From NCBI GenBank assembly GCA_016780745.1, contig JADHLJ010000001.1, forward strand, positions 1 through 34,536: a stretch of 34,536 nucleotides of DNA, read 5' to 3'. The stretch comes from Alphaproteobacteria bacterium (GTDB lineage Bacteria; Pseudomonadota; Alphaproteobacteria; Thalassobaculales; Thalassobaculaceae). Shown piece after piece: positions 16,607 to 34,536 of this stretch. Each line of letters begins with the position of its first letter. Position 1 is the first letter of the stretch. Both the position numbers and the translations under genes were made by a program. The notes beneath the pieces were generated by a model, which was given only the letters and a program-made list of their open reading frames with translations, did not search any database and was not told where the DNA came from.

Positions 16607-16990
16607 ATGTTGCGAATTCCAAACCGACGAGATCGGGGTTTAGGAATCTGGAGCGCGCGGTTGCTCGCGCTCATGCTGATGGCCGTGGTATCAGGCTTCG
16701 CGTTCTCGGCGCCGGCGAACGCGCTTTCGCTTGATGAAGCCCGCGCGCAAGGCCTGATTGGCGAGCAGCCGAACGGATATCTCGGGCTGGTGCCAGGGCA
16801 ATCCAACGCACGGGCCGCGACGCTGGTCGAGCAGATCAACGCTAAACGTCGCGCCGCCTATCAATCAGTGGCGGACAGCAACGGCACGACTTTGAAGTCG
16901 GTCGAAGCACTGGCCGGAAGCAAACTAATTGGTCGGCTCCAACCCGGGCAATGGTTTCGGGACCAGGGCGGTCAATGGCGACGCCGCTGA
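16607..16990 (+). CDS. ydbL: YdbL-like periplasmic protein (DUF1318)
   Basis: The track ORF is 16562..16990. The ATG at 16607 is preceded by a gggggga SD. There is a signal peptide ending SAPANA|LSL. The mature part LDEARAQGLIGEQPNGYLGLV...INAKRRAAYQSVADSNGTTL matches the DUF1318 pattern. Confidence 0.75.
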   Translation: MLRIPNRRDRGLGIWSARLLALMLMAVVSGFAFSAPANALSLDEARAQGLIGEQPNGYLGLVPGQSNARAATLVEQINAKRRAAYQSVADSNGTTLKSVEALAGSKLIGRLQPGQWFRDQGGQWRRR

Positions 16991-18285
16991 CCGGTTGACG
17001 TATCAACCGACGTTATTCGGCCGTAGCGCGCGACATAGGCTTTAAGCTCCTTGGCGACCGCGGCGATGACATTGCGCCAGCTCGCTTCGTCGCCGCCAGC
17101 GCCGTCGGCTTCGGTCATCCGGAACAGCCGCATGGTTGGATACCAGGGCGTGTCGTCCCGCTCCAATAACCAACGCCAGTCCGAATGCCGTCCGAGGAGC
17201 AGCCAGACCGGCTTGCCCATCGCTCCCGCGAGATGGGCAACAGACGTATCGACCGCGATTACAAGGTCGAGGCCGGCGATGACATCGGCGGTATCCGCGA
17301 AATCACGGACCTTGTCACCTAGCGGGGTGACGTTCGACCAAGGTCCCGGCTTGGTACCTGGTCGCCAGCCATATTGAAGGCTTTGAAAGTTCGGTCCTGG
17401 TATCTCAAGGAGCGGTGTCAGGGCGACCTGGGGACAGGACCGCCATTCGTCGCGGGTATTGTCGGGTGTTCCAGCCCATACCAGTCCGACCCGGGGAGGG
17501 TCGGTTGGAGGCCGCCGCGCGGGCGAGGAGAGCGCGTTTAGATACGGAACATCGTCCGGAATCGTTTCGGGTCCCGTGGCGAAGCGGTGCGGCAGGCTCA
17601 TGATCAAGCAGGTGGTATCAAATTCCGGCTGAGCCCCGGTTGAGACGTTATCGATCCATGGCACGGCGGCGAAGAGCCGTGCCAACGTCGGCTGACAATG
17701 CACATAGACGGTCATGCCGGCTTCGGTGAGCGGCCGCGCGTAGCGAATGAATTGGATTGCGTCTCCCGCGCCTTGTTCGGCGATCAGAAGGATGCGTTGG
17801 CCGGGGATGCGTTGACCGTCCCATACCACGCGATGCAGGTCACGCATCTGGGCGGTAAATTCACGGCAAGACTCACGGGTTTCGTATAGCGGCCAGGCAT
17901 TGGTCCAATCACCGGCTTGAAGCATCGCGAGCGATAAACCCGTCATGATCTCCGGACGTGCCTGGTCCAGGCATAGCGCTCTTCGATAGGTGGTGATCGC
18001 GGATGCTGCGTTGTCGAAACTGAATTCGGCGTTGCCGAAATTGTAATAGATCGCGGCGGCTTCGGGCTGAAGCACGAGGGCGCGGCGAAAAGCACGGGTC
18101 ATTCTCTCGCGATTGCCGAGGCCTCGCAGTGATTGGCCTAGCCCCATATAGACCCGAGCGTCGCGCGGGAAGCGCAAGGCAAGCAGGCGATGGCATTGCA
18201 CAGCCTTGTGATGTGCTCGCGCCGCCATGAGTTTTCGGCCCATGGCTAGGCCGTCTTCGAGAGTTCGCCCGCTACCGATCGCCAT
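16972..18285 (-). CDS. TPR-repeat protein fused to a GT9 (heptosyltransferase-like) GT-B domain, paralogue 1
   Basis: 437 aa. The N-terminal part has TPR-like repeats (YMGLGQSLRGLGNRERMTRAFRRALVLQPEAAAIYYNFGNAEF...). The C-terminal part reads WDGQRIPGQRILLIAEQGAGDAIQFIRYA...DTSVAHLAGAMGKPVWLLLGRHSDWRWLLERDDTPWYPTMRLFR, like the LPS heptosyltransferase (GT9) C-terminal nucleotide-sugar domain. It starts 14 nt after the MFP stop. Confidence 0.75.
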   Translation of the reverse strand: MAIGSGRTLEDGLAMGRKLMAARAHHKAVQCHRLLALRFPRDARVYMGLGQSLRGLGNRERMTRAFRRALVLQPEAAAIYYNFGNAEFSFDNAASAITTYRRALCLDQARPEIMTGLSLAMLQAGDWTNAWPLYETRESCREFTAQMRDLHRVVWDGQRIPGQRILLIAEQGAGDAIQFIRYARPLTEAGMTVYVHCQPTLARLFAAVPWIDNVSTGAQPEFDTTCLIMSLPHRFATGPETIPDDVPYLNALSSPARRPPTDPPRVGLVWAGTPDNTRDEWRSCPQVALTPLLEIPGPNFQSLQYGWRPGTKPGPWSNVTPLGDKVRDFADTADVIAGLDLVIAVDTSVAHLAGAMGKPVWLLLGRHSDWRWLLERDDTPWYPTMRLFRMTEADGAGGDEASWRNVIAAVAKELKAYVARYGRITSVDTSTGQRRRH

Positions 18286-18299
18286 GATTTCTGATGGCC

Positions 18300-19658
18300 T
18301 CAGGGTTCCCGCAAGGCCATCTGGAAACTCGCTATCATCGGGGTCATCAGATAACTGAGCAGCGTCTGCTCACCGACCGCGATTAAGCCGGATGCCGGCA
18401 TTCCAGAGGTAAGTTGTTGATCACCGATGGCTTTTCTAAGGGACTCTTGATCCAACCGGACTGTCACGCCGTATAGCGGTCTTCCCTTGGCGGTGGGCAT
18501 CGTGGTCGGCGTAATGCTGACCAATTGCCCGTCAACGGGCGGGGTCAATCGTGGATTGAAGGCGGTTAGCCGCACCTTGACCATCGCACCGGTTTTAACT
18601 TGTTCGATATCCTTGGATTTTAATTTGCCCTTAAGAACCATCTCCTCGTTCTGGGGGACAATTTCCATCAAGACCTGCCCACCGGAAACGACTTGTCCTT
18701 CGTTTCTAATCTGCAGGTTCATCACCCGTCCATTCGCGGGGGCTTTTACGTCGATCCGAGACTTCTGGTCCGCCAGAACTCCAACATTCTCGCGACGTCG
18801 CGCAATCTCGGGATCGAGCTGATTTAAACGGCCGAGATTCCTAGTTCTCTCGGATTGTAATCGGGCCTCAATCGCCAGCCTACGCTCACCCAGTTTTTGA
18901 TTGATTTGGGCAATTGCCTCTCCGATGGTGCCTTGTTGACCGAGCAGTCCGGTTCTGGCGCGTTTAATCGCCAGGAGGCGCGATTTCGTCGTGAGCCGTT
19001 TGTCGTAAAGTTGCTGAACGGACGCGAGTTCCTCATCGATCAAGGCGAGAGAGTCTTCGACGGTCTTCATCCTGATATCGTATGAACGAAGCTCGGTCTC
19101 GATTTGCGCGATTTGTTCAAACTGAATTTCCAGGGTCTTTGCCTTGCTGGTGCGCAACTCTTCAAAAAGTTTCACCTCGCTGTCGATAATTTTCCCGTAG
19201 ACGGGATTTTTCCGTGCTTGGGTTAACTCGGCATCCAGAGACAGGGCCGTCTCGTCGGCGAGCTCGGCATGCACTCTCGCTCGTTCCGCCAACAATGATA
19301 CCAGCGAAGATTCTTGAGCCAGGGCCTGTGCATCCGTGCGAAGCGGGTCCAGGCGCGCGAGAACTTGTCCTCGCGAGATTCGTTCCCCGTCGCGCACGAG
19401 GATCTCGCGTACTAATCCACCTTCAAGATGCTGGACTGTCTTGACCCCGGAATCGACTTCAATGGACCCAGCCACATTGACACCGCTCGCCAAGGGCGCG
19501 AAGGCGGCCCACCCGCCCAAGCCGCCAAAGAACAACAAAATGATGGTGTAGCCGAATGCACTTGCTCCCGCCCATGTTGGTTTTCCAGGGCGATCCGTCA
19601 AGGAAACGGATAAGGGGCGACCGGGTAGGGTTTGTTGATCTACGGTTTGAAGGGACAT
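18300..19658 (-). CDS. Type I secretion membrane fusion protein (HlyD family)
   Basis: 452 aa. It has a single N-terminal TM helix (FGYTIILLFFGGLGGWAAFAPL), a long coiled-coil middle region, and a C-terminal beta-barrel/lipoyl-like region ending LLSYLMTPM. The ATG lies 7 nt after the ABC gene stop. Confidence 0.9.
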   Translation of the reverse strand: MSLQTVDQQTLPGRPLSVSLTDRPGKPTWAGASAFGYTIILLFFGGLGGWAAFAPLASGVNVAGSIEVDSGVKTVQHLEGGLVREILVRDGERISRGQVLARLDPLRTDAQALAQESSLVSLLAERARVHAELADETALSLDAELTQARKNPVYGKIIDSEVKLFEELRTSKAKTLEIQFEQIAQIETELRSYDIRMKTVEDSLALIDEELASVQQLYDKRLTTKSRLLAIKRARTGLLGQQGTIGEAIAQINQKLGERRLAIEARLQSERTRNLGRLNQLDPEIARRRENVGVLADQKSRIDVKAPANGRVMNLQIRNEGQVVSGGQVLMEIVPQNEEMVLKGKLKSKDIEQVKTGAMVKVRLTAFNPRLTPPVDGQLVSITPTTMPTAKGRPLYGVTVRLDQESLRKAIGDQQLTSGMPASGLIAVGEQTLLSYLMTPMIASFQMALREP

Positions 19659-19665: not shown

Positions 19666-21435
19666 TCACGCGTTAGCTGGACTGGTTACGACGTTGATTG
19701 CTCGATCGTCGGGCTGTTTGCTTCCACCGCCGCCGCCAAGAATTGGAAGCATCTCTTCCCTAGGGCCGATGCGCTGAATTTTACCATCCACCAGCACCAT
19801 TACATAGTCCAGGACCTTTAGGATATTTGGTCTGTGCAAGATCAAAACGACGGTTACGCCGCGCCGCTTTAACTCTTCAATCGCCGCCGCGAGCGCTTCT
19901 TCGCCATGGGCGTCGAGATTGGCGTTCGGTTCGTCCAAAACCACGAGCTTTACATCGCCATAGAGCGCGCGGGCCAAGCCAACACGCTGCATCTGCCCCC
20001 CCGACAATAGCGTGCCACCATTGCCGACAACGGTCTGATAGCCTTGGGGCATGAACTTGACCATCGTGTCGACATTGGCGAGACGGGCGGCGTCCAGGAT
20101 TCTTTCGCTGGTCCAGTCGTCGGCTTGTCGCGCGATATTGTCGCGTACCGTTCCGCCGAATAACTCAACATCCTGAGGCAGATAGCCGATATGGGCGCCG
20201 AGGTCGACCGATGGCCATTCATGTAGATGCGAGCCATCGAGTTTCACGGATCCGGCGCTTGGTCGATCGAGGCCCACGAGAAGTCGGGCCAAGGTCGACT
20301 TGCCGGAAGCGGAAGGACCGACGATCCCCAAGGACTCTCCGGGCTTCAGCGAAAAGTCGATGTCTTTCAAAACTGGTTCAGGCGCCGAGGGAGGATGGAA
20401 ATTCAATCCTTCAACCTTCAGTTCCCCTTGGGGGGCGGGCGGCGTTTCTTGCTGGGCCGGTGTCCGCGCGGCGGCCTGTCGCAGCGCCGCCGACAAGGCC
20501 TTGTAATCACCTATCGCTTCGTTGATCGGCGCCCAGCCGGTGACCAGAAACTGCACCGGCATTAGGACACGCCCCACGAGGATGACCGATGCCATCATTG
20601 CACCGCGTGACAAATTGGTGTCGGGGTGGATGATCAGGATCGCGCAAACGGTCATGATTGCCATCATCGAGCCGAACTGCATGGTTTTGCCGACCGCCGC
20701 CATCAGTCCCATGCGTCTCGTGAAGATCGCGAGCCTATCGAGAGCGACATCGTTGTCCTGCTCCCAACGGCGCCCGACCCGTGCGCCCATCCCCATGGCT
20801 TCGATGACGTCGGCGTTGCGCAGGCTTACCTCGGCCTTGCGATTGGACTCGCCCATCGCGGCCAGGCCGACCTCGCGAACCGGACCGGTCGCCCATTTGT
20901 TGGCGAGCGCTAGGAAGAGAATGAACACGGCGATCGTCGTGGCGGCGACGCCGATCCAGAACTGTAAGAAGAAAAGAAATGCCAGAAATAACGGCACCCA
21001 CGGTAGGTCCATGACCATGAAGATTTGTTCGCCGGCTAGGAAGTTCCGGAGGGAATCCATGCGGCTCAGAAGTTCCGTGTCACGTCTTGATCCACGCGCC
21101 GTGGCGTTGCGCAAGGAAAGCGCGAAAATTTTTCGCCCGATCTGGTGGGCGATCCATGAACTTACACGCACGAACAAATAGGTGCGCGCGATATCAATCA
21201 CGGCCTGGATAAGAAGGGCGGATAACGCGAAGAGCGCCAGGAACGTGAGGGTAAACTGGTTGCCACCACCGCCCAAGACACGGTCGAAAAGCGAGAACAT
21301 ATAGACAGGCATGACCAATATGAGGGCATTGACGAAAAAGCTGAAGATCGCGGCGGTCGCGAACGCCCCGCGCGCCGCCCACAGCATCTCCTTCAGGGGA
21401 TCGCCACCTGACGCGGTCTTGGTTCCTGCGGCCAT
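19666..21435 (-). CDS. Type I secretion system permease/ATPase (PrtD/AprD/RsaD type, no C39 peptidase or CLD domain)
   Basis: 589 aa. It has an N-terminal 6-TM domain (FSFFVNALILVMPVYMFSLFDRVL), Walker A GPSASGKST, ABC signature LSGGQMQR and Walker B LVVLDEPNANLD. An AGGTGA SD lies 5 nt upstream of the ATG. Confidence 0.92.
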   Translation of the reverse strand: MAAGTKTASGGDPLKEMLWAARGAFATAAIFSFFVNALILVMPVYMFSLFDRVLGGGGNQFTLTFLALFALSALLIQAVIDIARTYLFVRVSSWIAHQIGRKIFALSLRNATARGSRRDTELLSRMDSLRNFLAGEQIFMVMDLPWVPLFLAFLFFLQFWIGVAATTIAVFILFLALANKWATGPVREVGLAAMGESNRKAEVSLRNADVIEAMGMGARVGRRWEQDNDVALDRLAIFTRRMGLMAAVGKTMQFGSMMAIMTVCAILIIHPDTNLSRGAMMASVILVGRVLMPVQFLVTGWAPINEAIGDYKALSAALRQAAARTPAQQETPPAPQGELKVEGLNFHPPSAPEPVLKDIDFSLKPGESLGIVGPSASGKSTLARLLVGLDRPSAGSVKLDGSHLHEWPSVDLGAHIGYLPQDVELFGGTVRDNIARQADDWTSERILDAARLANVDTMVKFMPQGYQTVVGNGGTLLSGGQMQRVGLARALYGDVKLVVLDEPNANLDAHGEEALAAAIEELKRRGVTVVLILHRPNILKVLDYVMVLVDGKIQRIGPREEMLPILGGGGGSKQPDDRAINVVTSPANA

Positions 21436-21564
21436 TGAATCACCTGAGTCAAACCAGCCTCTTCGCTAGAGGCCATGAATTCGCTTATTTGAGCCACCGG
21501 GCCGACGCATACGCGCGATACGACGTTATATCGTCGCCCGCTTGTCGGTAATGGTGCATCGTGT

Positions 21565-21594
21565 TTGACGACCCACCACGGTCGACCTTATTTA
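21565..21594 (+). promoter_or_regulatory. Candidate sigma-70-type promoter for the rightward glycosyltransferase genes
   Basis: TTGACG (21565-21570), an 18-nt spacer, then TATTTA (21589-21594). It sits in the 200-nt divergent intergenic region between the T1SS ABC gene and the GT4 gene. This is a pattern match only. Confidence 0.25.
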
Positions 21595-21637
21595 GGCTTT
21601 CCAGGGGATTGCCGCAAATGAATTCGGTATCCGCCGA

Positions 21638-22921
21638 ATGTCGAGGAAAAGGCGACTTTACGTGAAAATTCTGTTTGTTCACCAGAACATGCCGGGCCAA
21701 TACAAGCATCTGGCCCCCGCCTTGGCCGCCAACCCGGCGAATGAAGTGGCGTTCATCACCAAGGAAGGCAAGCCCGACCTGCCCGGCATCAGGAAAGCGA
21801 CGTATAAACTTACCCGTGAGCCTAGCAAGGGGATCCACCAATATCTGACCCGACTGGAGGACCAGGTCCTGCACGGACAGGGTGCTGTTCGCGCCGCCCT
21901 CGAATTGGCGGAAAGCGGGTTTGTTCCAGATGTGATCTGCGCTCATACGGGGTGGGGGGAGGCGCTATTCCTGAGAGATGTCTTCCCGAATTCCCGAATC
22001 CTGGCATTTTCCGAATTCTATTATTCCTCGAAGGGCGCGGATATCGACTTTTCGCCGGATCATAAACCGGATCTCGATCGTGATTGCCGTACCCGCATGC
22101 GCAACACCCATATGCTCATGAGTCTGGAGGCCGCCGACTGGGGTATCAGCCCGACCCGATGGCAATGGAGTCGGCATCCGTCTTTCGTCCGTGATCGTAT
22201 TTCGGTTATTCACGAAGGCGTGGACACTGACTTGTGCACCGCCGACCCCAAGGCAGTGCTTGAGCTACCCAATGGCATGACGCTGTCCAGAGACGATGAA
22301 GTGGTTACGTATCTCGCCCGAAATCTGGAGCCCTATCGCGGCTTTGACATCTTCATGCAAAGTATCAACGGCATTCTTGAACGTAGGCCGAACGCGCGCA
22401 TTGTGTTGGTGGGCGGGGACGACGTCAGTTACGGCAATCCCCCGCCCAATGGTGAGAATTGGCGGAACTTCATGTTGGCGCGCACCAGATTTGACCCGCG
22501 CCGCGTGCATTTTTTTAATCGTGTGCCGTATTCCGTTTTTCAGCAGGTGTTGTCGATTTCAAAGGCGCATGTCTATCTGACCTATCCTTTCGTGCTGTCC
22601 TGGTCGATGTTGGAGACCATGAGCCACGAATGCATGCTGATTGCGTCAAAAACCGCGCCCGTGACCGAGGTTGTCGAGGACGGCGTCAACGGTCGCCTGG
22701 TATCCTTTCACAATCCGGCCGAGATAACCGATGCGGTGGTTTGGGCCTTGGAGAACCAGGATGCCACGGTCAAGTACCGCAAGGCCGCGCGCGAAACCAT
22801 CGTCGAGAAATACGATCTTCGAAAAGTGTGCTTGCCGGCGCAGGTCGATCTCGTCTCCACACTCGCGGAAGGGCGAACGCCGCCGCTGATGGACCCGACA
22901 TGGACGGCCGCGACGGCTTGA
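21638..22921 (+). CDS. Glycosyltransferase, GT4-like (GT-B fold)
   Basis: 427 aa from the ATG at 21638. An alternative GTG at 21662 is preceded by aggaaaagg. The N-terminus is KILFVHQNMPGQYKHLAPAL...HTGWGEALFLRDVFP and the C-terminal half is typical GT-B (VLVGGDDVSYG..., LETMSHECMLIASKTAPVTEVVEDGVNG). Confidence 0.8.
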   Translation: MSRKRRLYVKILFVHQNMPGQYKHLAPALAANPANEVAFITKEGKPDLPGIRKATYKLTREPSKGIHQYLTRLEDQVLHGQGAVRAALELAESGFVPDVICAHTGWGEALFLRDVFPNSRILAFSEFYYSSKGADIDFSPDHKPDLDRDCRTRMRNTHMLMSLEAADWGISPTRWQWSRHPSFVRDRISVIHEGVDTDLCTADPKAVLELPNGMTLSRDDEVVTYLARNLEPYRGFDIFMQSINGILERRPNARIVLVGGDDVSYGNPPPNGENWRNFMLARTRFDPRRVHFFNRVPYSVFQQVLSISKAHVYLTYPFVLSWSMLETMSHECMLIASKTAPVTEVVEDGVNGRLVSFHNPAEITDAVVWALENQDATVKYRKAARETIVEKYDLRKVCLPAQVDLVSTLAEGRTPPLMDPTWTAATA

Positions 22922-24560: not shown

Positions 24561-25241
24561 CTAGGCGAGGCGATCTCGCTCGGCTAACCAAAGATCCGCG
24601 TAGTCCACGTGCCGCCAGTTCTCGAACCAGGGCCCGCCGCGTGTGAAGTGGATGGCGCCGGGCGCCCGTTCCGGATCTGGACTGTCCCAACCCTCAAGCC
24701 AATTCCATGTCGGGTCAAGACCGCCGATCTCCGCGTCGTCGACCCACTGAAAACGGTGCAAATAAGCGCCGGATTGTGTGTTCGCCGTTTCCACGTTGAG
24801 CTTGCGAGTGGCCGGGTGACTACAATTCAATAACATCAGGCTCGACCAGTTTTTACGTGGGTAGACGGACTGGGTCTGGCCATCCATCTTGACCGTTTCC
24901 CTCGGGCGATAGTCGTGCTGGACACACATTACGGCGTATTTCTCGTCCGCTTTCGCGAAAATCTCGGCGACGTCGCGAGTCCAGAGAAAATCGCAATCGC
25001 AGAACAGTGCCCAGCCTTCGTATCCCGCGAGATGGGGGACCAGAAACCGAGTGTAGGTAAACTCGGTCGAAGCTAGGGGGTCGACATCCCGATGATACAA
25101 GCCACGTTCGCGCAGGTCGTCCTGGATGATTGGCGTAATGTGGAGCGTGGCGTTGGAATGTCGCTCGAGAGAGGCGCGGCAAACATCAAAGGCTTCGGGC
25201 TCTCGACTGTCCCATCCAACGTATATCCGCAATGCGCTCAT
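24561..25241 (-). CDS. Putative GT-A fold glycosyltransferase (GT8-like, DXD = DCD)
   Basis: The track ORF is 24561..25376. The likely start is the ATG at 25241 (MSALRIYVGWDSREPEAFDVC...). The internal sequence STEFTYTRFLVPHLAGYEGWALFCDCDFLW has a DXD-type motif, followed by ...YPRKNWSSLMLLNC. It resembles small GT8-like transferases. The family call comes from motif memory only. Confidence 0.5.
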   Translation of the reverse strand: MSALRIYVGWDSREPEAFDVCRASLERHSNATLHITPIIQDDLRERGLYHRDVDPLASTEFTYTRFLVPHLAGYEGWALFCDCDFLWTRDVAEIFAKADEKYAVMCVQHDYRPRETVKMDGQTQSVYPRKNWSSLMLLNCSHPATRKLNVETANTQSGAYLHRFQWVDDAEIGGLDPTWNWLEGWDSPDPERAPGAIHFTRGGPWFENWRHVDYADLWLAERDRLA

Positions 25242-25423
25242 TCCATTCTCCGGCCCCGGCCCGGTGGCGATCCAGGATCGGCGAGTGATAGCGAACCTGC
25301 CTAGCCAAGGCAACGCGGCAATCCGCCCGGGTTGCCCGCCGCTCTCGACATCCATCCCCATCTCGGATAAAGCCAAGCGCTGATTTCAACGTTGCTTTCA
25401 TCCTATGTTTGGTCATCTCTAGA

Positions 25424-27094: not shown

Positions 27095-28887
27095 GCTACA
27101 TGGTGCAAGCGGATGCAAAGCCACGCCGGCCCGTCGCGCAGTATTGCCGTGATGCCGATAAGTTGTTCGAGGCGAAGAAAATAGCCGAGGCCGAGGCGCT
27201 TTTGTCGGAAGCCATTGGTGCTTACACCGCGGATGTCGGACTTCAATGGCGGATGGCCGATGTCGAGTTCAGAAAAGGCCAAGTGGCGGCCGCCAAGCAA
27301 CGATTGGTTCGGGCTGGTAACGGCAATCCCGCCGGATGCGACGGCGCGTTCTTCAATGCCGGTGTTCGATTGGGGCGTGCCGCCAAGGATATCGCCTTTG
27401 CCGAAGGCATGGTGAAAGCAGGACTGGAACGCTTTCCGTTGAATCCCGAGTTGCGCCAGCACGCTGGCGGGCTGCTCGCCGACGCGGGGAAACACGCCGC
27501 CGCGGTCGAGCAACTCGAGGCGGCTGTCAATATGGATCCGACAAATGCGCCAGCGCTGAATGCCCTGGGGTATTCACTGGAGCAGATCGGAGAATTGGAC
27601 CGCGCTGATCGCGTGCTACGGAGTGCCCTGGGTCGGGTGACGCCCGAGATCGGGTTCAATGTCCTCGTAAATCTTGGCAATGTGGCGCAGAAACGCGGCG
27701 CGTTGGCGCAGGGGCGCGGTTATTATCAACGGGCTCTTAAGCTTCGGAAGCCTGGGTATCTCTATGCGAACTATGGCGCGCTGCTTCGAAAATCCCATGA
27801 CTTCGACACCGCCGAGTTGGTGTACCGCAAAGGGCTGACAATCGACCCGGGCGCGGGCGGTTCCTATTACAATCTCGCGAACCTCTACAAGGAGGTTGGC
27901 GACCTCGATCGCGCGATCGAAGCCTATCGGCGAGGGCTTCGGATCAACCCGGAAGGGGCATCGATCCATTGGAATCTTTCCTTGACCTATCTTGGCGCTG
28001 GCCGATTGCGAGAAGGTTTCGAGGAATACGAGTGGCGATGGCGGTATGACGGCTTTCCCTCTCGCCGGCGAAATTTCGAGCAACCGCAATGGAGCGGCGA
28101 ACCACTCAAAGGACGAACCCTGCTCGTGCATGCCGAGCAGGGGATCGGGGACCATCTTCAATTCGCGCGTTTCATTCCCGTGCTCTCGAAGCTCGACGGC
28201 CGGGTGATCGTCGAGTGCCATGAGCCGCTGATGCGTCTGTTTCAGCACTATGCCGGGGATGTAGAGATCGTTGAGCGCTTGAAGCAGCCGAATGATTTTG
28301 ATCTGCATCTTCCATTGTTGAGCGCGCCACTAGCGCTGGGCGTCCACTCCTTGGAGGATCTTCCGGGCGCGCCGTTCCTAGCGCCGCCGGTGGATTGGAA
28401 GTTCGATATTCCCGAGGCCAAGGCGAACGCTTTCAAGGTTGGTATAATCTGGGGTGGGAATCCGAATTTCCCGGGGGATGGCGAGCGTTCCGCGAAACTC
28501 GACTACTATCTGCCGTTGCTGAAGAACAAGCGCGTTCAACTCTTCAGTTTGCAAAAGGGCGAGCGAGAGCCGGATTTGAAGGACGCGCCGAAAGAGGTCG
28601 TGCGTCTAAGCGATAGAATCAACGACTTCTGCGATACCGCCTCGATTATGACGCAGATGGATCTAGTTATCACCACCTGTACCTCGACGGCGCATCTCGC
28701 GGGCGCCTTGGGAGTCCCGGTTTGGGTCGCGCTGCACCACAACCCGGATTGGCGTTGGCTACGGCATCGCGAGGATAGTCCCTGGTATCCGAGCGCGCGG
28801 TTGTTTCAACAGAAAAGTCCGGGTGATTGGAAAGGCGTGTTCAAATCCATCGAGCGAGCCTTGAAGAAATCAACCGCCAAACGCTGA
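27091..28887 (+). CDS. TPR-repeat protein fused to a GT9-like domain, paralogue 3
   Basis: 598 aa. Its ATG overlaps the GT4 stop (ATGA at 27091-27094). It has multiple TPR repeats (NALGYSLEQIGELDRADRVLRSAL, YYNLANLYKEVGDLDRAIEAYRRGLRINPEGA...). The C-terminal part reads WSGEPLKGRTLLVHAEQGIGDHLQFARF...TSTAHLAGALGVPVWVALHHNPDWRWLRHREDSPWYPSARLFQQ. Confidence 0.8.
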   Translation: MSYMVQADAKPRRPVAQYCRDADKLFEAKKIAEAEALLSEAIGAYTADVGLQWRMADVEFRKGQVAAAKQRLVRAGNGNPAGCDGAFFNAGVRLGRAAKDIAFAEGMVKAGLERFPLNPELRQHAGGLLADAGKHAAAVEQLEAAVNMDPTNAPALNALGYSLEQIGELDRADRVLRSALGRVTPEIGFNVLVNLGNVAQKRGALAQGRGYYQRALKLRKPGYLYANYGALLRKSHDFDTAELVYRKGLTIDPGAGGSYYNLANLYKEVGDLDRAIEAYRRGLRINPEGASIHWNLSLTYLGAGRLREGFEEYEWRWRYDGFPSRRRNFEQPQWSGEPLKGRTLLVHAEQGIGDHLQFARFIPVLSKLDGRVIVECHEPLMRLFQHYAGDVEIVERLKQPNDFDLHLPLLSAPLALGVHSLEDLPGAPFLAPPVDWKFDIPEAKANAFKVGIIWGGNPNFPGDGERSAKLDYYLPLLKNKRVQLFSLQKGEREPDLKDAPKEVVRLSDRINDFCDTASIMTQMDLVITTCTSTAHLAGALGVPVWVALHHNPDWRWLRHREDSPWYPSARLFQQKSPGDWKGVFKSIERALKKSTAKR

Positions 28888-28899
28888 TTGGACTTCGGA

Positions 28900-30108
28900 A
28901 TGCCCGGGCGCCGCATTCTTTTCATTTGGGAACTTGGTGACGGTCTGGGCCATGTATCCCGGATCTTGCCCTTGGCGCGCCAACTTCAAGCCGCCGGCGA
29001 GATTTGCATGTTCGCCGTCCGCAACGTGGAGAATAGCCATCGGGTTTTGGACGGGACGGGCATGGGGATGCTTCAGGCTCCTCTGACGCAACCGGTTACG
29101 GACTATGACGGAAAGGCCTCCATCGGCGCCTATGGCGACATCATGGAAACCATCGGATACGCGCGTGTCGAGCGATTGCACGCGATGTTGACCGCCTGGG
29201 ACGGGATCTATGAAACCGCGCGTCCAGACCTGATTGTCGCCGATTACGCGCCGACCGCCCTTCTCGCGGCCAGGGGGCGGATTCCGGCGGTTGCGATTGG
29301 TGACTGGTTCACCTTGCCGCCAAGCACGCTTCCAGCTTTCCCGTATCTGCGCGAGACCGGGCCCCGGATCGCGGAGGCGGATTTAATGCGCGTCGTTCAC
29401 GAGGCTCAGCGCCGACGGGGAGCATCGGCGCCGGCGGCAATGCCTGGAATTCTGGATTGCGCCGCGGCATTCATCATCACCTTGCCGGAACTTGACCAAT
29501 ACGCGGACAAGCGACGGCTGCCCGCTGTTGGGCCATTGACGCCGCTTCCCGAGCCGCTGGAGAACACGGACCACGAGGTGGACTACTTCGCGTATCTGTC
29601 GCTGGGATTTCGCCCGACCGTCAAGGTGCTCGAGGCGTTGGTCAAGATGCGGCTGAGGGGAAGTATCTATCTGCGTGACTCCTCCGCGCTTCAGCGTGAT
29701 TCCTGGCGCGAACGAGGGCTGACCATCCATGATGGACCGCAGGATCTGAGAGAAATGGCGCGTCGGAGCGCGGTGATGATCCATCATGGCGGGCTCGGGA
29801 CGATTGAAACGGTGTTTGCCTTGGGGCGTCCACAATTGCTGGTGCCCCGGCATTTGGAGCAAGGCGTGAACGCGGCGATGGCCGGGCGCTTGCGTTTGGC
29901 TGTTGGAATGCAAACCGGTGGACGATTCGAGGGGGAACACGTCTCGCGGGCGTTGAATCACGCGCTGGCATCCAAGGATCTTCGGGACAATGCCGCTCGG
30001 AAGGCCGAGGAACTGGCCCAGCGAGGACCGTTCAACGCGCTTGAACCGGTGACTGAATTCTGTTTAACCACGCTGGCGACGGGTATCCAGCAATCGAAGG
30101 GATCATAA
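28900..30108 (+). CDS. GT1-family (UDP-glycosyltransferase / MGT-like) glycosyltransferase
   Basis: The start is ATG 28900 or TTG 28888. The N-terminus is RILFIWELGDGLGHVSRILPLA. The C-terminal nucleotide-sugar signature is MIHHGGLGTIETVFALGRPQLLVPRHLEQGVNA, matching the HHGGxGT...(D/E)Q..NA pattern. Confidence 0.8.
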   Translation: MPGRRILFIWELGDGLGHVSRILPLARQLQAAGEICMFAVRNVENSHRVLDGTGMGMLQAPLTQPVTDYDGKASIGAYGDIMETIGYARVERLHAMLTAWDGIYETARPDLIVADYAPTALLAARGRIPAVAIGDWFTLPPSTLPAFPYLRETGPRIAEADLMRVVHEAQRRRGASAPAAMPGILDCAAAFIITLPELDQYADKRRLPAVGPLTPLPEPLENTDHEVDYFAYLSLGFRPTVKVLEALVKMRLRGSIYLRDSSALQRDSWRERGLTIHDGPQDLREMARRSAVMIHHGGLGTIETVFALGRPQLLVPRHLEQGVNAAMAGRLRLAVGMQTGGRFEGEHVSRALNHALASKDLRDNAARKAEELAQRGPFNALEPVTEFCLTTLATGIQQSKGS

Positions 30109-30109: not shown

Positions 30110-31018
30110 ATGGCGTTGGACAATAAAATGGCGGGCAAGGATCTCAATGATGACGATATCCGCGACAAAATCCCGTTGGTTGCCAAGGATCACCCGGACC
30201 ACAAGTCGCGTTTCTCGGTGGCTGGTGTCGAGTTCGGTGGCCCGCTGATCCCGGTGATGGGCGGCCCGAACACCGTTGAGAACGAGGAAATGATCGTCAA
30301 GACCGCCAAGGGCATTAAGGCCTCGGGCGGCCATTTCCTACGCGGCGGCGCGTTCAAGCCGCTGACCTTTCCGTACCGTAGCGAGAAATACTACGAGACC
30401 CGCGAGCAGGGCCTGGAATGGCTTCAGGTTGCCAAGAAGGAAACCGGCCTGCCGGTCGTCACCGAGGTGATGGACGTCGCCAAGATCGACGTGGTCGCAA
30501 AGAACAGCGACATGCTGCAGATCGGCACTCGCAACATGCAGAATTACGTCCTGTTGACCGAGGTCGGCAAGACCGGGATGCCGGTGATGTTGAAGCGGGG
30601 TTATGGCTCCTCGCTTCGTGATTGGCTGATGGCGGCGGAATACATCGCGCTCGAACATGACCGTCTTGGCCAACAGCAGCAGATCGTGCTGTGTGAACGC
30701 GGCGTGGTGTCGAACCATACGCATCGCGCGGGCTCTCGCTTCCTGCTCGATCTTCAAGTGGTTCCGGCGGCCCAGGACGTCACCCATCTCCCGGTGATGA
30801 CCGATCCTTCGCACGCGACTTTCTGGCAGCCCTGGGTGAAGCCGATGATGCTGGCTTCAATTGGCGCCGGCGCGGACGGGCTGATGCTGGAAGTTCATCC
30901 AAACCCGCCTGAAGCCGCCGTCGATCCGCTCCAATGCAGCTCTCTCGAACAGTTCGACGAGATGATGAAGGCGATGCGCCCCGTGGCCGCCGCGATTGGA
31001 CGCACGCTGGACGCGTAA
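30110..31018 (+). CDS. Divergent DAHP-synthase-I-beta / KDO8P-synthase superfamily PEP-dependent aldolase
   Basis: 302 aa, with an AAGGGA SD; the ATG lies 1 nt after the GT1 stop. The backbone motifs are LRGGAFKP, LPVVTEVMD, MLQIGTRNMQNY, PVMLKRG, VLCERG, LPVMTDPSH and GADGLMLEVHPNP..A.VD. There are two deviations from the canon: GGPNTVEN where DAHPS has GPCxVES, and KPLTFPY where it has KPRTSPY. Confidence 0.8.
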   Translation: MALDNKMAGKDLNDDDIRDKIPLVAKDHPDHKSRFSVAGVEFGGPLIPVMGGPNTVENEEMIVKTAKGIKASGGHFLRGGAFKPLTFPYRSEKYYETREQGLEWLQVAKKETGLPVVTEVMDVAKIDVVAKNSDMLQIGTRNMQNYVLLTEVGKTGMPVMLKRGYGSSLRDWLMAAEYIALEHDRLGQQQQIVLCERGVVSNHTHRAGSRFLLDLQVVPAAQDVTHLPVMTDPSHATFWQPWVKPMMLASIGAGADGLMLEVHPNPPEAAVDPLQCSSLEQFDEMMKAMRPVAAAIGRTLDA

Positions 31019-31106: not shown

Positions 31107-32294
31107 ATGACCCATGTTCTGGTCGACGCGCTGATCGAGCATTTTCGAAATACGCCGCGCGATCGCATGGCGCGTGGCGATTTCTACCGTATCAATCATG
31201 ATTTTGTCGCGGCGGCTCGTGATCAAGGGTTTAACGCGACGATCGAGGATGCGGCCCGGTTGCTTGAAGACGGTGTGTCACCATCGCTCTGGGCCGAAAC
31301 CTCCCGCCAACGCGAGGCGACTCATCTCGCGCTTCGCCAGGTCGCGGGGATGGCGCCCGAGACCGTTCTTGATCGTGCAATTTTGGACTTTTTGAACGGA
31401 TCGCCCGGTGACGCTGTCCGCGGCATTGGCGAAGTTCAACGTCAGGGTATCGAGAGCTTTGGAAAATATCGTTCCATGCTCAATCGTGGACACGACCGTG
31501 GGCTGGCGATCTGGCAGGTTATGAACCCGTTCTATTTCCTGTGGGCGTCGCTGCCGGTCGCTAGGACCACGCCCAGCGATCGATGGCGCGAGGATCAGTT
31601 CAACAACACGCCCGAGCCGACCACCGAGAGCACGCGGTCGGCCAACGATCGTATGCTGGTGGAATTTCTACGCGGCGAGTTGGGTTCCGAGTTCTGGTCG
31701 ACGACAAGCGTGTTGGATTGTGGTTGCGGGCACGGGCATACCGCCAGCTTGCTGATAGATGAACTCGGCGTTGATCCGTCGGCCTACTCCGCCTTTGATC
31801 TGCACGAAAAGCGCGTTGAGCGCACCAGGTCCGTGGCTCTGAGCGCCGCGTCCAACATGTCCGCGACGCCTGCCGGCGCTTCAATAGACGATCGCTTTTT
31901 CCCATTGGATATCCTCGCGGACGACGCACCCAAGCGTATTCAAGCGCTGGGGGAGGTCGATGTGGTTTTTTCGACAAGCTTCACCAACGTGTTCGATGAC
32001 ACGCAACTTCCACTGATCCTGAAAAGGATGACGCTGCCCAAGCCAAAGGTGATCGTTGATATCTCGGTGACCACCAGTTGGGGCTTTTGTATCGGTCGTA
32101 TCGATCCTTCGGCGGCGTATCGAGCGGCGGGCTACCAACTGCGGGTGTCGCGTCTTGAAACGCCCGCGCTAGAGGCGAACGAAACCCATCGGCTATGGAT
32201 GCCGCAACGCTATTGGTCCAATAGAAACATTTTGATCTACGAGAAAATTCCCGGGAGTGACGATCGCGATCTTGGAAAACAGCTTGGCGCTTAG
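31107..32294 (+). CDS. Class I SAM-dependent methyltransferase with ~200-aa N-terminal domain of unknown function
   Basis: 395 aa. SAM motif I is at about residue 205 (SVLDCGCGHGHTASLL), followed by the acidic post-I residue in AFDLHE and motif II-like VDVVFSTSF. I do not recognise the N-terminal half. Confidence 0.65.
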   Translation: MTHVLVDALIEHFRNTPRDRMARGDFYRINHDFVAAARDQGFNATIEDAARLLEDGVSPSLWAETSRQREATHLALRQVAGMAPETVLDRAILDFLNGSPGDAVRGIGEVQRQGIESFGKYRSMLNRGHDRGLAIWQVMNPFYFLWASLPVARTTPSDRWREDQFNNTPEPTTESTRSANDRMLVEFLRGELGSEFWSTTSVLDCGCGHGHTASLLIDELGVDPSAYSAFDLHEKRVERTRSVALSAASNMSATPAGASIDDRFFPLDILADDAPKRIQALGEVDVVFSTSFTNVFDDTQLPLILKRMTLPKPKVIVDISVTTSWGFCIGRIDPSAAYRAAGYQLRVSRLETPALEANETHRLWMPQRYWSNRNILIYEKIPGSDDRDLGKQLGA

Positions 32295-32339
32295 CGAACC
32301 GCGCGGTAAATCAGTTGCGACCCAAAAAGGATAAGGACG

Positions 32340-33230
32340 ATGTCGGACACTCTGTTCCCCGATTTACTCGACAATTCGGTTGCCGTGACCACCGAAAGAT
32401 ACGCGGCGATCCTGGGCCTGGCGCCATCAAAGGGCGCGCGTTCGCCAATTCTGTGGAACGCGGCTTTCGCGGTGGCCGGCATGGACGCGGTGATGCACCC
32501 CTTTGATGTCAACGAGGCCAAGTTGCCCGGTCTTGTCGCCGCGCTGAAAGCCGATCCTCGCTATATCGGCGGCAGTGTCGCGGTGCCGCACAAGCAAGGC
32601 CTGGTGCCGCTTCTCGATCGACTGGAGCCCGAGGCCGAGCGCATCGGCGCGGTAAACGCCATTTACCGTGACGGCGAAGATCTGGTCGGCGCCAATACCG
32701 ACGGCGCTGGGGCCTTGGCGCAGCTTCAAGAGGTTGTCGATGACTTGGCCGGACGGCACGCGATCGTGCTGGGGCTCGGCGGCGCCGGTTTGGCGGTGGC
32801 GGCTTATCTCGCGGCCAATGTTGCCTCGCTTCGGTTGGCGAACCGCACCGCCGAGACGGCAACCGCCTTCGCCGAGCGGTTGGGCGGCAAGGTGCGAGCG
32901 GTTGGGATGCCCAATTCCTCGGCGGATCTGCGCGGCGTCAATCTGATCGTGAACTGCACGTCGGTCGGGCACCAGGACGGCGATCAGGCCTCCTCGCTTG
33001 GTGATAACAGCGAGGCCCTGCTGGATGCCATGCCGGATGACACGGTGGTCTACGACATCATCTATCAGCCGGCGGAAACCGAGTTACTCCGTCAGGCAAA
33101 GGTGATCGGCTTGGTGACCCTGAACGGGCTCGGGATGAACCTGGATCAGGCGGTCATCGCCTTCGAGAAGGCCAATCCCGGACGGCTTTCCATCGACGAG
33201 ATTCGTGACGCCATGCAATCGGCTGGTTGA
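32340..33230 (+). CDS. Shikimate/quinate dehydrogenase family (AroE-like) oxidoreductase paralogue
   Basis: 296 aa. Motifs present are ARSPILWNAAF (SxSPxxHNxxF region), GGSVAVPHKQ (catalytic Lys), IGAVNAIY, GANTDGAGA (catalytic Asp), the Rossmann stretch VLGLGGAGLAVAAYL, the NRT motif and GLGMNLDQAV. AAGGA lies upstream. Confidence 0.8.
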   Translation: MSDTLFPDLLDNSVAVTTERYAAILGLAPSKGARSPILWNAAFAVAGMDAVMHPFDVNEAKLPGLVAALKADPRYIGGSVAVPHKQGLVPLLDRLEPEAERIGAVNAIYRDGEDLVGANTDGAGALAQLQEVVDDLAGRHAIVLGLGGAGLAVAAYLAANVASLRLANRTAETATAFAERLGGKVRAVGMPNSSADLRGVNLIVNCTSVGHQDGDQASSLGDNSEALLDAMPDDTVVYDIIYQPAETELLRQAKVIGLVTLNGLGMNLDQAVIAFEKANPGRLSIDEIRDAMQSAG

Positions 33231-33237
33231 GCCGTAA

Positions 33238-33741
33238 ATGACCGTCATACTGGTTCGTGATCCAGCCCAGGCCAGGCTGCCCCAGGAAGACGACGACGCG
33301 TTCTGGCCGCTTGATTTCGATCGAGCCGTCGATAGTCCCCTTGAAGACGTGCTTGCGGAATTCGATGTGGTGATACCGGCGGATGATCTCCGCGTCGCCC
33401 CGCGACTGAGCGGCAAGGCACGGGTCGCGCTGCACTGTGTCCGGCTCGAGGCGTTGGAGCATTTGATCTCCATCGCCGGCGATTTCGACATCATTTTCAG
33501 TCCTAGCCTTTTGACGCGTCTGGATCGGCACCGGTCGTTGCGGCCGACATTGTTGGCGGCGCGGGCGATGGATGCCGGGCATCGGATCGTGGCGGCTGAT
33601 CTGGGATCCGAGACCGGTGGTGCCGGCATGTCGGCGGAACTGAAAGACACTGTCATCGGACGCGTGCTGCTCTATGATTTGCCGTCCGGATCGGCCATCG
33701 ATTTCGGGATGATCGGAGAGCGCGGGGAGGAACCGGCGTGA
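33238..33741 (+). CDS. Hypothetical acidic protein, no recognisable family
   Basis: 167-aa ORF. It starts 7 nt after the AroE-like stop, and its stop overlaps the next gene's GTG (GTGA). Codon composition resembles its neighbours. The coding call rests on this operon packing. Confidence 0.55.
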   Translation: MTVILVRDPAQARLPQEDDDAFWPLDFDRAVDSPLEDVLAEFDVVIPADDLRVAPRLSGKARVALHCVRLEALEHLISIAGDFDIIFSPSLLTRLDRHRSLRPTLLAARAMDAGHRIVAADLGSETGGAGMSAELKDTVIGRVLLYDLPSGSAIDFGMIGERGEEPA

Positions 33742-34418
33742 TCAGCGTGGTGCTGCGGGCCAAGAACGAGGCGTTCTGGATGGACAAATGTCTGACCGCG
33801 CTTCGCAATCAACGGGTGCCGGACATCGATGTCGTCCTTGTCGACAACGAATCGACGGATGACACGGTGGCGATTTCCGAGGCCCATGGAGTGACGCTGC
33901 GGACGATCACTCGAGACGAGTTCTCTTATGGCCGCGCCCTCAATATCGGCATCGAGGCGGCCCGTCACGACGTGGTCGCGCTGCTGTCCTCGCATTGCGT
34001 GCCGATCGACGAGCTTTGGGCGGACTATCTGTTGGCGCATCTCGGACCCGAGGGCGATCCGGCGGTGTGCGGAGTTTATGGCCGGCAAGAACCGATGCCC
34101 GATACGAGCGCCATCGACAAGCGTGACCTCTGGACAACTTTTCGCGATGAGCGGGTGCGTCAGTGCCGGGATTATTTCTTCCACAACGCCAATTCCGGCA
34201 TTCGCAAGTCGATCTGGAGGGATGAGCCGTTCGACGAGGAGATCCGAGGTGTCGAGGATCGGGAATGGGGCAAGCGAATGATCCGCCTCGGCCATGAAAT
34301 CGTCTACGAGCCGCATCTCCGGGTTTACCATCAGCACGGCATCCATCAGGGTCGCGACGAGGGGCGGGCCAAGCGGGTCGCCGAGGTCATCGACTACATC
34401 CGCACGAGCGTGCCATGA
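33738..34418 (+). CDS. GT2-like (GT-A fold) glycosyltransferase
   Basis: 226 aa with a GTG start. It reads ISVVLRAKNEAFWMDKCLTALRNQRVPDIDVVLVDNESTDDT..., then FSYGRALNIGIEAARHDVVALLSSHCVP and later RGVEDREWGKRM. This layout is typical of short GT2 proteins. Confidence 0.65.
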   Translation: MISVVLRAKNEAFWMDKCLTALRNQRVPDIDVVLVDNESTDDTVAISEAHGVTLRTITRDEFSYGRALNIGIEAARHDVVALLSSHCVPIDELWADYLLAHLGPEGDPAVCGVYGRQEPMPDTSAIDKRDLWTTFRDERVRQCRDYFFHNANSGIRKSIWRDEPFDEEIRGVEDREWGKRMIRLGHEIVYEPHLRVYHQHGIHQGRDEGRAKRVAEVIDYIRTSVP

Positions 34419-34536
34419 GCGAAACCTTAATCATCGTGCCGGTCCTGGCGGCCTCGAAGAGCACCGAGGCGATCCTTAAACCATTGCGCGGGCCGTCCAG
34501 TCTGGAGCGGACCCTTGCCGCCGTGATCGAGGATCT
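34415..34536 (+). CDS. 5' end of a possible sugar nucleotidyltransferase (cytidylyltransferase-like), truncated by the window edge
   Basis: Its ATG overlaps the GT2 stop (ATGA). My own translation is MSETLIIVPVLAASKSTEAILKPLRGPSSLERTLAAVIED. It loosely follows the IIPARxxSKRxxxKxLxxLxGxPLI N-terminal pattern of CMP-sugar synthetases, but the Arg and the KN are not conserved. Only 40 codons are visible. Confidence 0.3.
   Translation, partial: MSETLIIVPVLAASKSTEAILKPLRGPSSLERTLAAVIED

Follow-up and report, generated by a model that had tools for sequence, protein, structure and literature searches.

In Sinorhizobium meliloti ExpE1, an RTX protein, is secreted by the type I secretion proteins ExpD1 and ExpD2, and mutants in expD produce no galactoglucan (exopolysaccharide II, EPS II) (PMC1403797); in the wg nomenclature of the galactoglucan cluster, expC is wgcA, expD1-expD2 are wgdA-wgdB and expE1 is wgeA (PMC3233446). 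The initiation and export of exp-type polysaccharides, and their need for a protein exporter, have been a question since the 1990s. A second system to be considered is the flagellin glycosyltransferase FlmG, whose tetratricopeptide repeat (TPR) domain binds that acceptor protein (PMC7591256) and whose GT-B domain uses cytidine monophosphate (CMP)-activated ulosonic acid donors, e.g., CMP-pseudaminic acid. The DNA analysed here, referred to as the window, is a stretch of 34,536 nucleotides (34.5 kb, about 60% G+C) from a member of the Thalassobaculaceae (Alphaproteobacteria; contig JADHLJ010000001.1), and its right half (16972-34536) is a locus that combines a PrtD/HlyD type I secretion pair with eight glycosyltransferase-type genes and a sugar-acid cassette. 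We put at about even the chance that this locus makes and exports an acidic surface glycan (an exopolysaccharide, capsule or O-chain-like polymer) in the manner of the exp (galactoglucan) system. This reading is based on the homology to exp, the exchange of the type I exporter for Wzm/Wzt in a relative, the polysaccharide genes that sister clusters carry, and the range of glycosyltransferases, eight enzymes of five types, which fit a heteropolymer.

The minus strand carries, in this order, a short TPR plus GT9-like protein, the HlyD adaptor and the PrtD-type ABC exporter. The plus strand beyond a spacer carries a GT4 gene, a TPR protein gene, a second GT4 gene, a second TPR protein gene, a GT1/GT28-like gene and genes for a DAHP (3-deoxy-D-arabino-heptulosonate 7-phosphate)-synthase-like protein, a weak methyltransferase match, a shikimate-dehydrogenase-like protein, a SAF protein and a GT2 enzyme; a 226-aa minus-strand gene sits between the first plus-strand TPR gene and the second GT4 gene. 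Within the operons genes are spaced by -4 to 14 bp, and the largest gaps in the locus are 202 and 167 bp. The homology to exp lies in the exporter and the gene that faces it:

18300-19658, minus strand: HlyD-family periplasmic adaptor, 452 aa (TIGR01843, 308.6 bits against a cut-off of 208.65)
19666-21435, minus strand: PrtD-family ABC permease/ATPase, 589 aa (TIGR01842, 552.9 bits against a cut-off of 510.15)
21436-21637: divergent intergenic region of 202 bp separating the exporter operon from the glycosyltransferase operon, defined by gene spacing, without an Rfam match and presumed to hold their promoters
21638-22921, plus strand: ExpC/WgcA-type GT4 with Glyco_trans_4_3 and Glycos_transf_1 domains (PF12000, E = 1.5e-63)

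The HlyD and ABC genes are separated by 7 bp, and the ABC protein has neither a C39 nor a C39-like domain at its N-terminus. A tblastn search of plasmids with the GT4 matched 69 Sinorhizobium records, the pSymB match being the GT4 gene that holds the expC/wgcA position in the galactoglucan cluster, between a MarR regulator gene and the expA operon and opposite expD1-expD2 and the gene for the calcium-binding protein ExpE1. The GT4 is 41% identical to this pSymB gene product, the ABC protein 41% identical to ExpD1 and the HlyD adaptor 31% identical to ExpD2, and in both systems the ExpC-type GT4 gene is divergent from the PrtD/HlyD pair. This layout around the 202-bp spacer is repeated in all relatives and at S. 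meliloti wggR/wgdA. The two systems further share several additional glycosyltransferases, a cluster without Wzx/Wzy, Wzm/Wzt or an initiating transferase, and a TolC that is encoded elsewhere; neither a TolC-type component nor an RTX or C-terminal-signal substrate was found in the window or in close relatives. Unlike exp, the window lacks a MarR (WggR) gene in the divergent spacer, an RTX (ExpE1) gene, genes for dTDP-sugars and pyruvyl transferases, which is also the case in the close relatives, and compared with the part of exp that was examined it adds three FlmG-family TPR-glycosyltransferases, a GT8-like gene and the ulosonic-acid cassette. Clusters with the GT4, the exporter and a calcium-binding protein are also found on one Polaromonas plasmid, together with TolC, a "capsular polysaccharide" gene and a GT28-like gene, and on Phaeobacter plasmids. 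Polysaccharide markers occur in several of these clusters, i.e., pyruvyl transferases in S. meliloti and Phaeobacter, the "capsular polysaccharide" gene and TolC in Polaromonas, a PilZ gene in the contig L089 and a sulfotransferase in Thalassobaculum. Copies of the GT4 on Azospirillum brasilense, A. lipoferum and Ralstonia plasmids have no adjacent orthologous exporter and were set aside as uninformative. A 153-aa open reading frame (ORF; 21485-21946) that overlaps the divergent spacer is probably spurious, no relative having a gene call there.

The best named relatives are marine Rhodospirillaceae/Thalassobaculales metagenome-assembled genomes, Nisaea and Azospirillum. Orthologues of the ABC gene (46-65% identity) are always divergent from a Glyco_trans_4_3 GT4 gene in spite of differing flanks, and no other gene is coupled as tightly to the exporter as this GT4. 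The linkage of exporter and glycosyltransferases is kept in at least five divergent lineages, across genera, and since the flanks differ between lineages the exporter is not a chance neighbour. One contig (L088) has only the triad of GT4, ABC and HlyD genes. A second (L086) adds another GT4 and a 619-aa TPR-glycosyltransferase and is without the sugar cassette, while N. sediminum (L087) has the entire left half of the locus through the DAHP-synthase-like gene. The uncultured relative L089 has, besides the triad, one gene for a GT9 enzyme and one for a PilZ protein. A. halopraeferens (L090) adds a trio of GT2 and cytidylyltransferase genes, several TPR-glycosyltransferases and two RTX proteins. 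The clade offers natural variants of the system, i.e., the minimal GT4 plus exporter, the Wzm/Wzt swap described below and versions with embedded RTX genes. The PilZ-domain gene (L089, 898-1239, minus strand) lies inside the homologous cluster and hints at control by cyclic di-GMP.

Of all single observations, the one from Nisaea indicates most strongly that the module would make a glycan that an O-polysaccharide-type exporter can manage. In N. nitritireducens (L007) an orthologous module (GT4 56%, second GT4 48%, TPR-glycosyltransferase 44% and GT1-like protein 43% identical) has an ABC-2 permease and a Wzt_C ATPase, i.e., Wzm/Wzt, divergent from the first GT4 gene, at the place of the type I exporter; among the genomes compared this was seen in N. 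nitritireducens only. The exchange involves L007 2905-5227 (Wzm/Wzt) and L087 1101-4364 (PrtD/HlyD plus TPR-glycosyltransferase) in N. sediminum, and the right flank is the same in the two species; the 2.9 kb beyond the N. nitritireducens Wzm/Wzt genes hold no convincing genes. Examples of capped O-polysaccharides exported by ABC transporters are E. coli O9a with WbdA/WbdD and Klebsiella O12 with WbbB and a beta-Kdo cap, and the initiating enzyme is typically encoded elsewhere. With such systems the locus shares cytoplasmic assembly by GT4-type enzymes, the placement of the module beside Wzm/Wzt (Wzt_C) in N. nitritireducens, and methyltransferases and an ulosonic acid as candidate terminal caps. 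It differs from them in that PrtD/HlyD takes the place of Wzm/Wzt, TPR domains are present where they have a coiled-coil ruler, and a GT99 Kdo transferase is missing. An HlyD-type adaptor together with TolC has also been proposed as polysaccharide export channel in a mixed-linkage glucan system (PMC13438883). This proposed conduit of HlyD-type adaptor and TolC would be common to BgsA/BgsB/TolC glucan export, cyanobacterial cellulose export and the window; the glucan and cellulose systems have a membrane GT2 synthase and no ABC protein, while the glycosyltransferases of the window are apparently soluble and accompany a full PrtD-type ABC protein.

The gene content described in a first-pass annotation, a glycosyltransferase-rich locus with a type I secretion pair, is correct, its eight or nine glycosyltransferase genes being settled at eight, and so is the absence of lipid-carrier polysaccharide machinery and of common nucleotide-sugar genes. 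In profile searches of the ORFs none of Wzx/Wzy/Wzz, Wzm/Wzt, WbaP/WecA, an O-antigen ligase or rml/gmd/gmh was found within the window, and as the gaps between genes are small (202 and 167 bp at most) there is no space for a hidden gene of this kind. The annotation had concluded from this that the locus glycosylates proteins directly. The part of that proposal that refers to FlmG homology and exporter linkage stands, while the argument from missing lipid-carrier machinery to protein glycosylation fails on exp and on the Nisaea swap: the exp system, the only characterised homologous one, lacks the same machinery and makes an exopolysaccharide, and missing classical machinery is therefore no pointer to protein glycosylation. 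More generally, absent Wzx/Wzy/Wzm/Wzt genes should be taken with caution as weak evidence for it.

The three TPR-glycosyltransferases are paralogues that keep the motifs of the FlmG family and differ in TPR length:

16972-18285, minus strand: FlmG-family short form, 437 aa, about four TPR and a GT9-like GT-B domain (Pfam TPR; PF01075, 26.5 bits against a cut-off of 22)
22900-24549, plus strand: FlmG-family TPR plus GT-B protein, about 549 aa (TPR Pfam matches; family motifs retained)
27091-28887, plus strand: FlmG-family protein of 598 aa, TPR (15-318) plus GT-B (340-598) (AlphaFold2 pLDDT 93, pTM 0.85)

The 437-aa protein is encoded by the last gene of the exporter operon, has orthologues after HlyD in L089, L090 and L087, and is 33% identical to its 598-aa paralogue. 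The start of the second protein was placed according to relatives' proteins of 546-559 aa. The AlphaFold model of the 598-aa protein shows the TPR plus GT-B layout of protein O-glycosyltransferases, its top fold matches being SPINDLY and OGT, driven by the TPR domain. A sequence search of solved structures with the TPR-glycosyltransferase gave TPR matches only, and a profile of the C-terminal domain had no match at E <= 10. For comparison with FlmG, an orthologue (L101) was located on one metagenome contig by an exact match to the published flmG cloning primer (eLife supplement). The ORF is 598 aa long (FlmG 596), adjoins flbT and is followed by a CTP_transf_3 cytidylyltransferase gene (976-1830, minus strand) and a GNAT gene, and it is taken as FlmG because of the primer match, the length and the flbT and GNAT neighbours. 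In BLASTP against L101 the protein of about 549 aa, the paralogue closest to FlmG, is 28% identical over 476 aa (E = 6e-33), the 598-aa protein 24% over 504 aa (E = 1e-26) and the 437-aa protein 25% over 435 aa (E = 8e-22). All three alignments are colinear and cover the TPR end and the whole GT-B domain. Judged by these alignments the three are members of the FlmG superfamily, paralogues and not orthologues at 24-28% identity, and the FlmG comparison made in the first-pass annotation therefore points to real, colinear homologues. With FlmG of Caulobacter crescentus and Brevundimonas subvibrioides they share a size of about 600 aa, with an N-terminal TPR part of about 315 residues and a C-terminal GT-B domain, as well as an association with a CTP_transf_3 cytidylyltransferase. 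They differ from it in forming a set of three paralogues, lacking a flagellar context and being tied to a type I exporter and an ExpC-type GT4. The adjacency of FlmG orthologue and cytidylyltransferase in L101 mirrors the link between TPR-glycosyltransferases and cytidylyltransferases in the clade of the window.

The parallel that had also been drawn to the adhesin heptosyltransferases TibC and AAH (BAHT) is weak, as the likeness to GT9 is restricted to one motif and no solved structure was matched by sequence. What TibC/AAH and the lipopolysaccharide (LPS) heptosyltransferases of GT9 share with the window proteins is the GT-B fold and the signature D(T/S)xxxHLAGAxGxP, to which the GT9 likeness is confined; PF01075 is matched by 9 of 14 family C-terminal domains, and by the 437-aa paralogue, over about 40-45 residues, and the C-terminal profile reaches 90% probability against E. 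coli WaaC/F/Q/U over 41 columns, compared with 1.3% for a GT8 control. TibC/AAH are without a TPR fusion, unlike the window proteins, and neither ADP-heptose (gmh) supply genes nor an autotransporter acceptor was found in the window or the relatives.

The FlmG homology raises the possibility that the FlmG-family enzymes O-glycosylate a type I substrate in the cytoplasm, e.g., a small RTX or S-layer-type protein encoded elsewhere, that the other glycosyltransferases extend the glycan and that PrtD/HlyD/TolC exports the glycoprotein. We regard this as possible but clearly the less likely reading. It is consistent with the TPR plus GT-B layout shared with FlmG, whose TPR domain binds a protein acceptor, with the bona fide PrtD-type protein exporter and its conserved linkage to glycosyltransferases, with the minimal form in L088 (one GT4 plus exporter), and with the lack of lipid-carrier machinery in the window and close relatives. 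It also fits A. halopraeferens, where one of the two RTX proteins, a small metzincin (HEIGHVLGLSH) with RTX repeats (L090, 2468-3466, plus strand), is encoded beside the GT2 and cytidylyltransferase genes, and the other, of 511 aa with 17 GGxGxD repeats and the terminus LDLDDFQF (18089-19624, minus strand), between TPR-glycosyltransferase genes; both are candidate substrates of the linked exporter. On the other hand neither the window nor its close relatives hold a gene for an acceptor, the product of the homologous exp system is a polysaccharide, with no report of glycosylation of the RTX protein there, the same glycosyltransferase module is paired with Wzm/Wzt in N. nitritireducens, and a literature search found no glycosylated type I substrate made by TPR-glycosyltransferases. 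The family is moreover abundant in non-flagellated cyanobacteria without a consistent protein partner. In its most specific form, namely O-glycosylation of an RTX or S-layer-type substrate, coupled to type I secretion, with a new CMP-3-deoxy-ulosonic acid from a metal-independent DAHP-synthase-like aldolase, the proposal is slightly more doubtful still. The surface-glycan and glycoprotein models are not exclusive, and a protein-primed polymer would satisfy both; if real, a protein-primed polysaccharide would explain how exp-type clusters do without an initiating transferase.

Flagellin is the sole demonstrated acceptor of the FlmG family. The locus might be read as a flagellin glycosylation island, in which FlmG-family enzymes add a new ulosonic acid to flagellins while the adjoining type I exporter has nothing to do with it. 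The FlmG homology itself, the position of the FlmG orthologue beside flbT and then a cytidylyltransferase gene, and a flagellin gene within 10 kb in 4 of 80 family loci speak for it. These 4 are however the only ones among the 80, and FlmG-family genes, of which more than 600 pattern matches were listed in the genome collection, are abundant in non-flagellated cyanobacteria, so that flagellin is not the general acceptor. No flagellar gene is present in the window or in the 10-kb flanks of clade members, the link to the exporter is conserved across lineages with different flanks, and at 24-28% identity the enzymes are paralogues of FlmG; taken together this makes a flagellin island very improbable. 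The exporter-linked members suggest a wider role of the family as CMP-ulosonic-acid transferases. Tandem arrays of 5-8 TPR-glycosyltransferase copies were seen in Microcoleus, Hormoscilla and other non-flagellated cyanobacteria (L008, L009, L011, L014, L027, L085).

The acidic sugar of the proposed glycan would come from the sugar-acid cassette. The "sugar-modification sub-cluster" of the first-pass annotation is present, with the correction that it consists of aldolase, weak methyltransferase, shikimate-dehydrogenase-like and SAF genes:

30110-31018, plus strand: diverged type I-beta DAHP-synthase-like phosphoenolpyruvate (PEP) aldolase (PF00793, E = 5e-47)
31107-32294, plus strand: 395-aa protein with a weak methyltransferase signature (Pfam Methyltransf_25, E = 2.5e-4)
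32340-33230, plus strand: shikimate-dehydrogenase-like NAD(P) oxidoreductase, 296 aa (PF08501, PF01488)
33238-33741, plus strand: SAF-domain protein, 167 aa (PF08666, E = 8e-4)

Over its full length the aldolase can be aligned with solved type I-beta enzymes (1vs1, 1zco, 4grs; E = 2e-60 to A. pernix DAHP synthase) and scores below the curated cut-offs (303 bits against 335 for NF006421, 260.1 against 267.75 for TIGR01361). In DAHP synthases the Cys of GPCS binds the metal and KPRTS binds the phosphate of erythrose-4-phosphate. In the window protein GPCS is changed to GPNT (Cys to Asn), KPRTSPY to KPLTFPY with a 3-residue insertion, and DPSHPAGRR to DPSHATFWQ. The substitutions are common to a whole subfamily, in which 111 of 120 members have KP(LTF/LSF)P. 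Members of this subfamily (62-100% identity) are found in Thalassobaculales, Nisaea and Azospirillum and are publicly annotated as 3-deoxy-7-phosphoheptulonate synthase. Among relatives whose other genes are 75-90% identical the aldolase is 97-98% identical, and a housekeeping DAHP synthase was considered for this reason and rejected, as residues for catalysis and binding are lost, the scores stay under the thresholds and glycan genes always surround it. It was never found in an aromatic-biosynthesis context and always near FlmG-family and glycosyltransferase genes. In Thalassobaculum (L098) it heads an operon of shikimate-dehydrogenase-like, 180-aa, GT2, NTP-transferase-like, cytidylyltransferase and GT4 genes, which adjoins TPR-glycosyltransferase, GT4 and GT1-like genes. 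In N. sediminum it comes directly after the GT1-like gene, and in A. halopraeferens it lies on the contig of the cluster, about 20 kb from the GT2/cytidylyltransferase genes and about 2 kb from another TPR protein gene. The shikimate-dehydrogenase-like protein, which follows the aldolase in Thalassobaculum too, is below all AroE cut-offs (best NCBIfam 177 bits against 295), and the position of the SAF-domain gene is conserved in L002, L004 and L098. The conserved cassette around the aldolase includes, besides the shikimate-dehydrogenase-like and SAF genes, the GT2 gene and two cytidylyltransferase-like genes.

The remaining glycosyltransferases of the locus are:

24561-25241, minus strand: divergent GT8-like GT-A protein, 226 aa (remote homologues match PF01501)
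25409-27094, plus strand: GT4, 561 aa (PF00534, E = 9e-24), with a 4-bp overlap with the next gene
28888-30108, plus strand: GT1/GT28-like (MurG/EryCIII-type) GT-B protein, 406 aa (weak PF06722 and PF04101 matches)
33738-34418, plus strand: small soluble GT2, 226 aa (PF00535, E = 3e-20)

The 561-aa GT4 and the 598-aa TPR-glycosyltransferase are a conserved pair in L086, L087, L007, L089 and L098, and the GT1-like protein has orthologues in L007, L087, L089 and L098 and an analogous gene in the Polaromonas exporter cluster. The GT2 is 79% identical in A. halopraeferens, where it also lies ahead of two nucleotidyltransferase genes. The 226-aa GT8-like protein itself has no direct Pfam match, while 19 of 38 remote members of its family match PF01501 (best E = 1e-9). 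Its profile aligns with WaaJ/WaaO over 208 columns, including DXD and HxxGxPW (E = 8e-4, 24% probability), a comparison that was negative with a shallow alignment and positive with a deeper one. A single-sequence AlphaFold model reached a pLDDT of 34, and among solved structures the profile had no meaningful match. The gene is 61-69% identical in relatives where the adjoining genes are 45-50% identical, which makes it, except for the DAHP-synthase-like gene, the best conserved of the genes in the cluster's left half. Fusions of the GT8-like domain to KDO8P (3-deoxy-D-manno-octulosonate 8-phosphate) synthase (KANRS; P0423) and to a CTP_transf_3 cytidylyltransferase (P0410) were found in AT-rich organisms. 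By their domain make-up these fusions tie the GT8-like family to Kdo-type sugars.

Since the aldolase is diverged, a cytidylyltransferase is linked to it and GT8-like domains are fused to Kdo-type genes, a CMP-ulosonic acid is proposed as the product, and the sequences suggest that the cassette makes a new CMP-activated 3-deoxy-2-ulosonic acid ("Kdx") other than Kdo. A PEP-utilising TIM-barrel aldolase is common to this cassette, to DAHP and KDO8P synthase and to the NeuB/PseI/LegI pathways, and a cytidylyltransferase neighbouring the aldolase is shared with the KdsA/KdsB and PseI/PseF pathways. The separate SAF protein recalls the C-terminal SAF (antifreeze-like) domain of NeuB. Metal-independent KDO8P synthases likewise have Asn at the position of the metal-binding Cys. 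The KPLTF of the window aldolase is neither the DAHP-synthase nor the KANRS form, and unlike these enzymes it is coupled to a shikimate-dehydrogenase-like protein. A NeuB-family synthase, PseB/PseC and a phosphatase are not present. The cassette may define a new bacterial acid sugar, of relevance to the antigenicity of cell surfaces, to phage receptors and to marine organic matter.

If the locus makes an acidic surface glycan, the cassette would supply the CMP-activated 3-deoxy-2-ulosonic sugar and, by analogy with FlmG, the GT-B domains of the FlmG-family proteins would transfer it, either as a residue of the repeat unit or as a chain cap. The GT4, GT8-like, GT1-like and GT2 enzymes would add the remaining sugars in the cytoplasm, and the TPR domains could tether the glycosyltransferases to one another or to the exporter. 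Export would proceed through the type I system and a TolC from elsewhere, the exporter itself being the channel; alternatively the type I system may secrete an RTX protein needed for glycan production, as ExpE1 is for galactoglucan. Several points weigh against this reading. PrtD-family ABC exporters are known protein exporters, and no enzyme for initiation, for polymerisation or for an acceptor lipid was identified. FlmG, the only characterised member of the TPR plus GT-B family, glycosylates a protein that its TPR domain binds, the S. meliloti exp cluster is without an FlmG-like gene, and the A. halopraeferens RTX protein embedded among TPR-glycosyltransferase genes also fits protein glycosylation. 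The N. nitritireducens Wzm/Wzt, of which a 10-kb flank was read, could serve another pathway, and the donor sugar is a prediction from sequence. In the literature searched, neither this type of cluster nor the diverged aldolase was found described, nor were FlmG-family enzymes with a link to type I secretion, and nothing relevant turned up on TPR-GT9 enzymes. Each component is of a class already known, and as a whole the locus follows the logic of a known, poorly understood system.

The right end of the locus lies outside the window. Direct extension is limited to a 1.8-kb Logan contig (L001), and the end was inferred from relatives of 78-89% identity (L002, L004, L006), which are fully syntenic with the locus. 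The window breaks off in the following gene:

34415-34536, plus strand: first 40 codons of a 220-aa nucleotidyltransferase-like gene (completed from Logan contig L001 and relatives; weak NTP_transf_3 and CTP_transf_3 matches)

In the relatives the next gene encodes a PseF/KdsB-like cytidylyltransferase (105 bits against the PseF model, 56 bits against the KdsB model), followed by a methyltransferase, an FAD oxidase or 2-oxoglutarate (2OG) oxygenase, a class V aminotransferase, a short-chain dehydrogenase/reductase (SDR) and, on the opposite strand, an amino-acid permease. By this synteny the locus would end about 5 kb beyond the window and have a total length of about 22 kb. Neither Wzx/Wzy nor Wzm/Wzt with an initiating transferase, genes that the first-pass annotation had named as signs of an ordinary O-antigen or capsule locus, is present in these approximately 5 kb of the 78-89% identical relatives.

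The variation between relatives also bears on whether the locus is one system or a composite of separate adjacent modules (exporter plus GT4, the TPR-glycosyltransferase/GT4 set, and the sugar-acid cassette) in a variable surface-structure region. The 395-aa gene with the weak methyltransferase signature is present in the 89% identical relative (L004) and absent from the 78% identical ones (L002, L006), and is a variable slot of the cassette. Together with the bare GT4 plus exporter in L088, the missing cassette in L086 and the distance of about 20 kb at which the A. halopraeferens aldolase lies, this agrees with a composite. Tight packing, with 4-bp overlaps and gaps of 0-14 bp, recurrence of the same combinations in Nisaea, Thalassobaculum, Azospirillum and uncultured lineages, and gene fusions that link the GT8-like family to Kdo-type synthesis genes argue against it, and we consider such a composite improbable, only marginally less so than the flagellin island.

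The left half of the window is housekeeping DNA, with genes for lipoamide dehydrogenase, xerC and a DUF484 protein, transaldolase, priA, the F1 ATP synthase operon and ydbH-ynbE-ydbL-like genes. The left boundary of the locus is sharp, as had been noted before: the gene at 16972-18285 (minus strand) overlaps the DUF1318 (ydbL-like) gene convergently by 19 bp, and no tRNA, no Rfam match (riboswitches included) and no flanking repeat was found. An origin as a mobile element was rejected, as there is no tRNA and no repeat, the difference in G+C is small (0.596 against 0.622), and the sole integrase nearby is the XerC-type gene 13 kb away. A 383-aa ORF at 1765-2916 (minus strand) has no Pfam, PADLOC or solved-structure match. 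It is located in a markedly AT-rich patch (G+C 0.45 against 0.62 around it), directly adjoins the xerC-type recombinase gene and may have been horizontally acquired.

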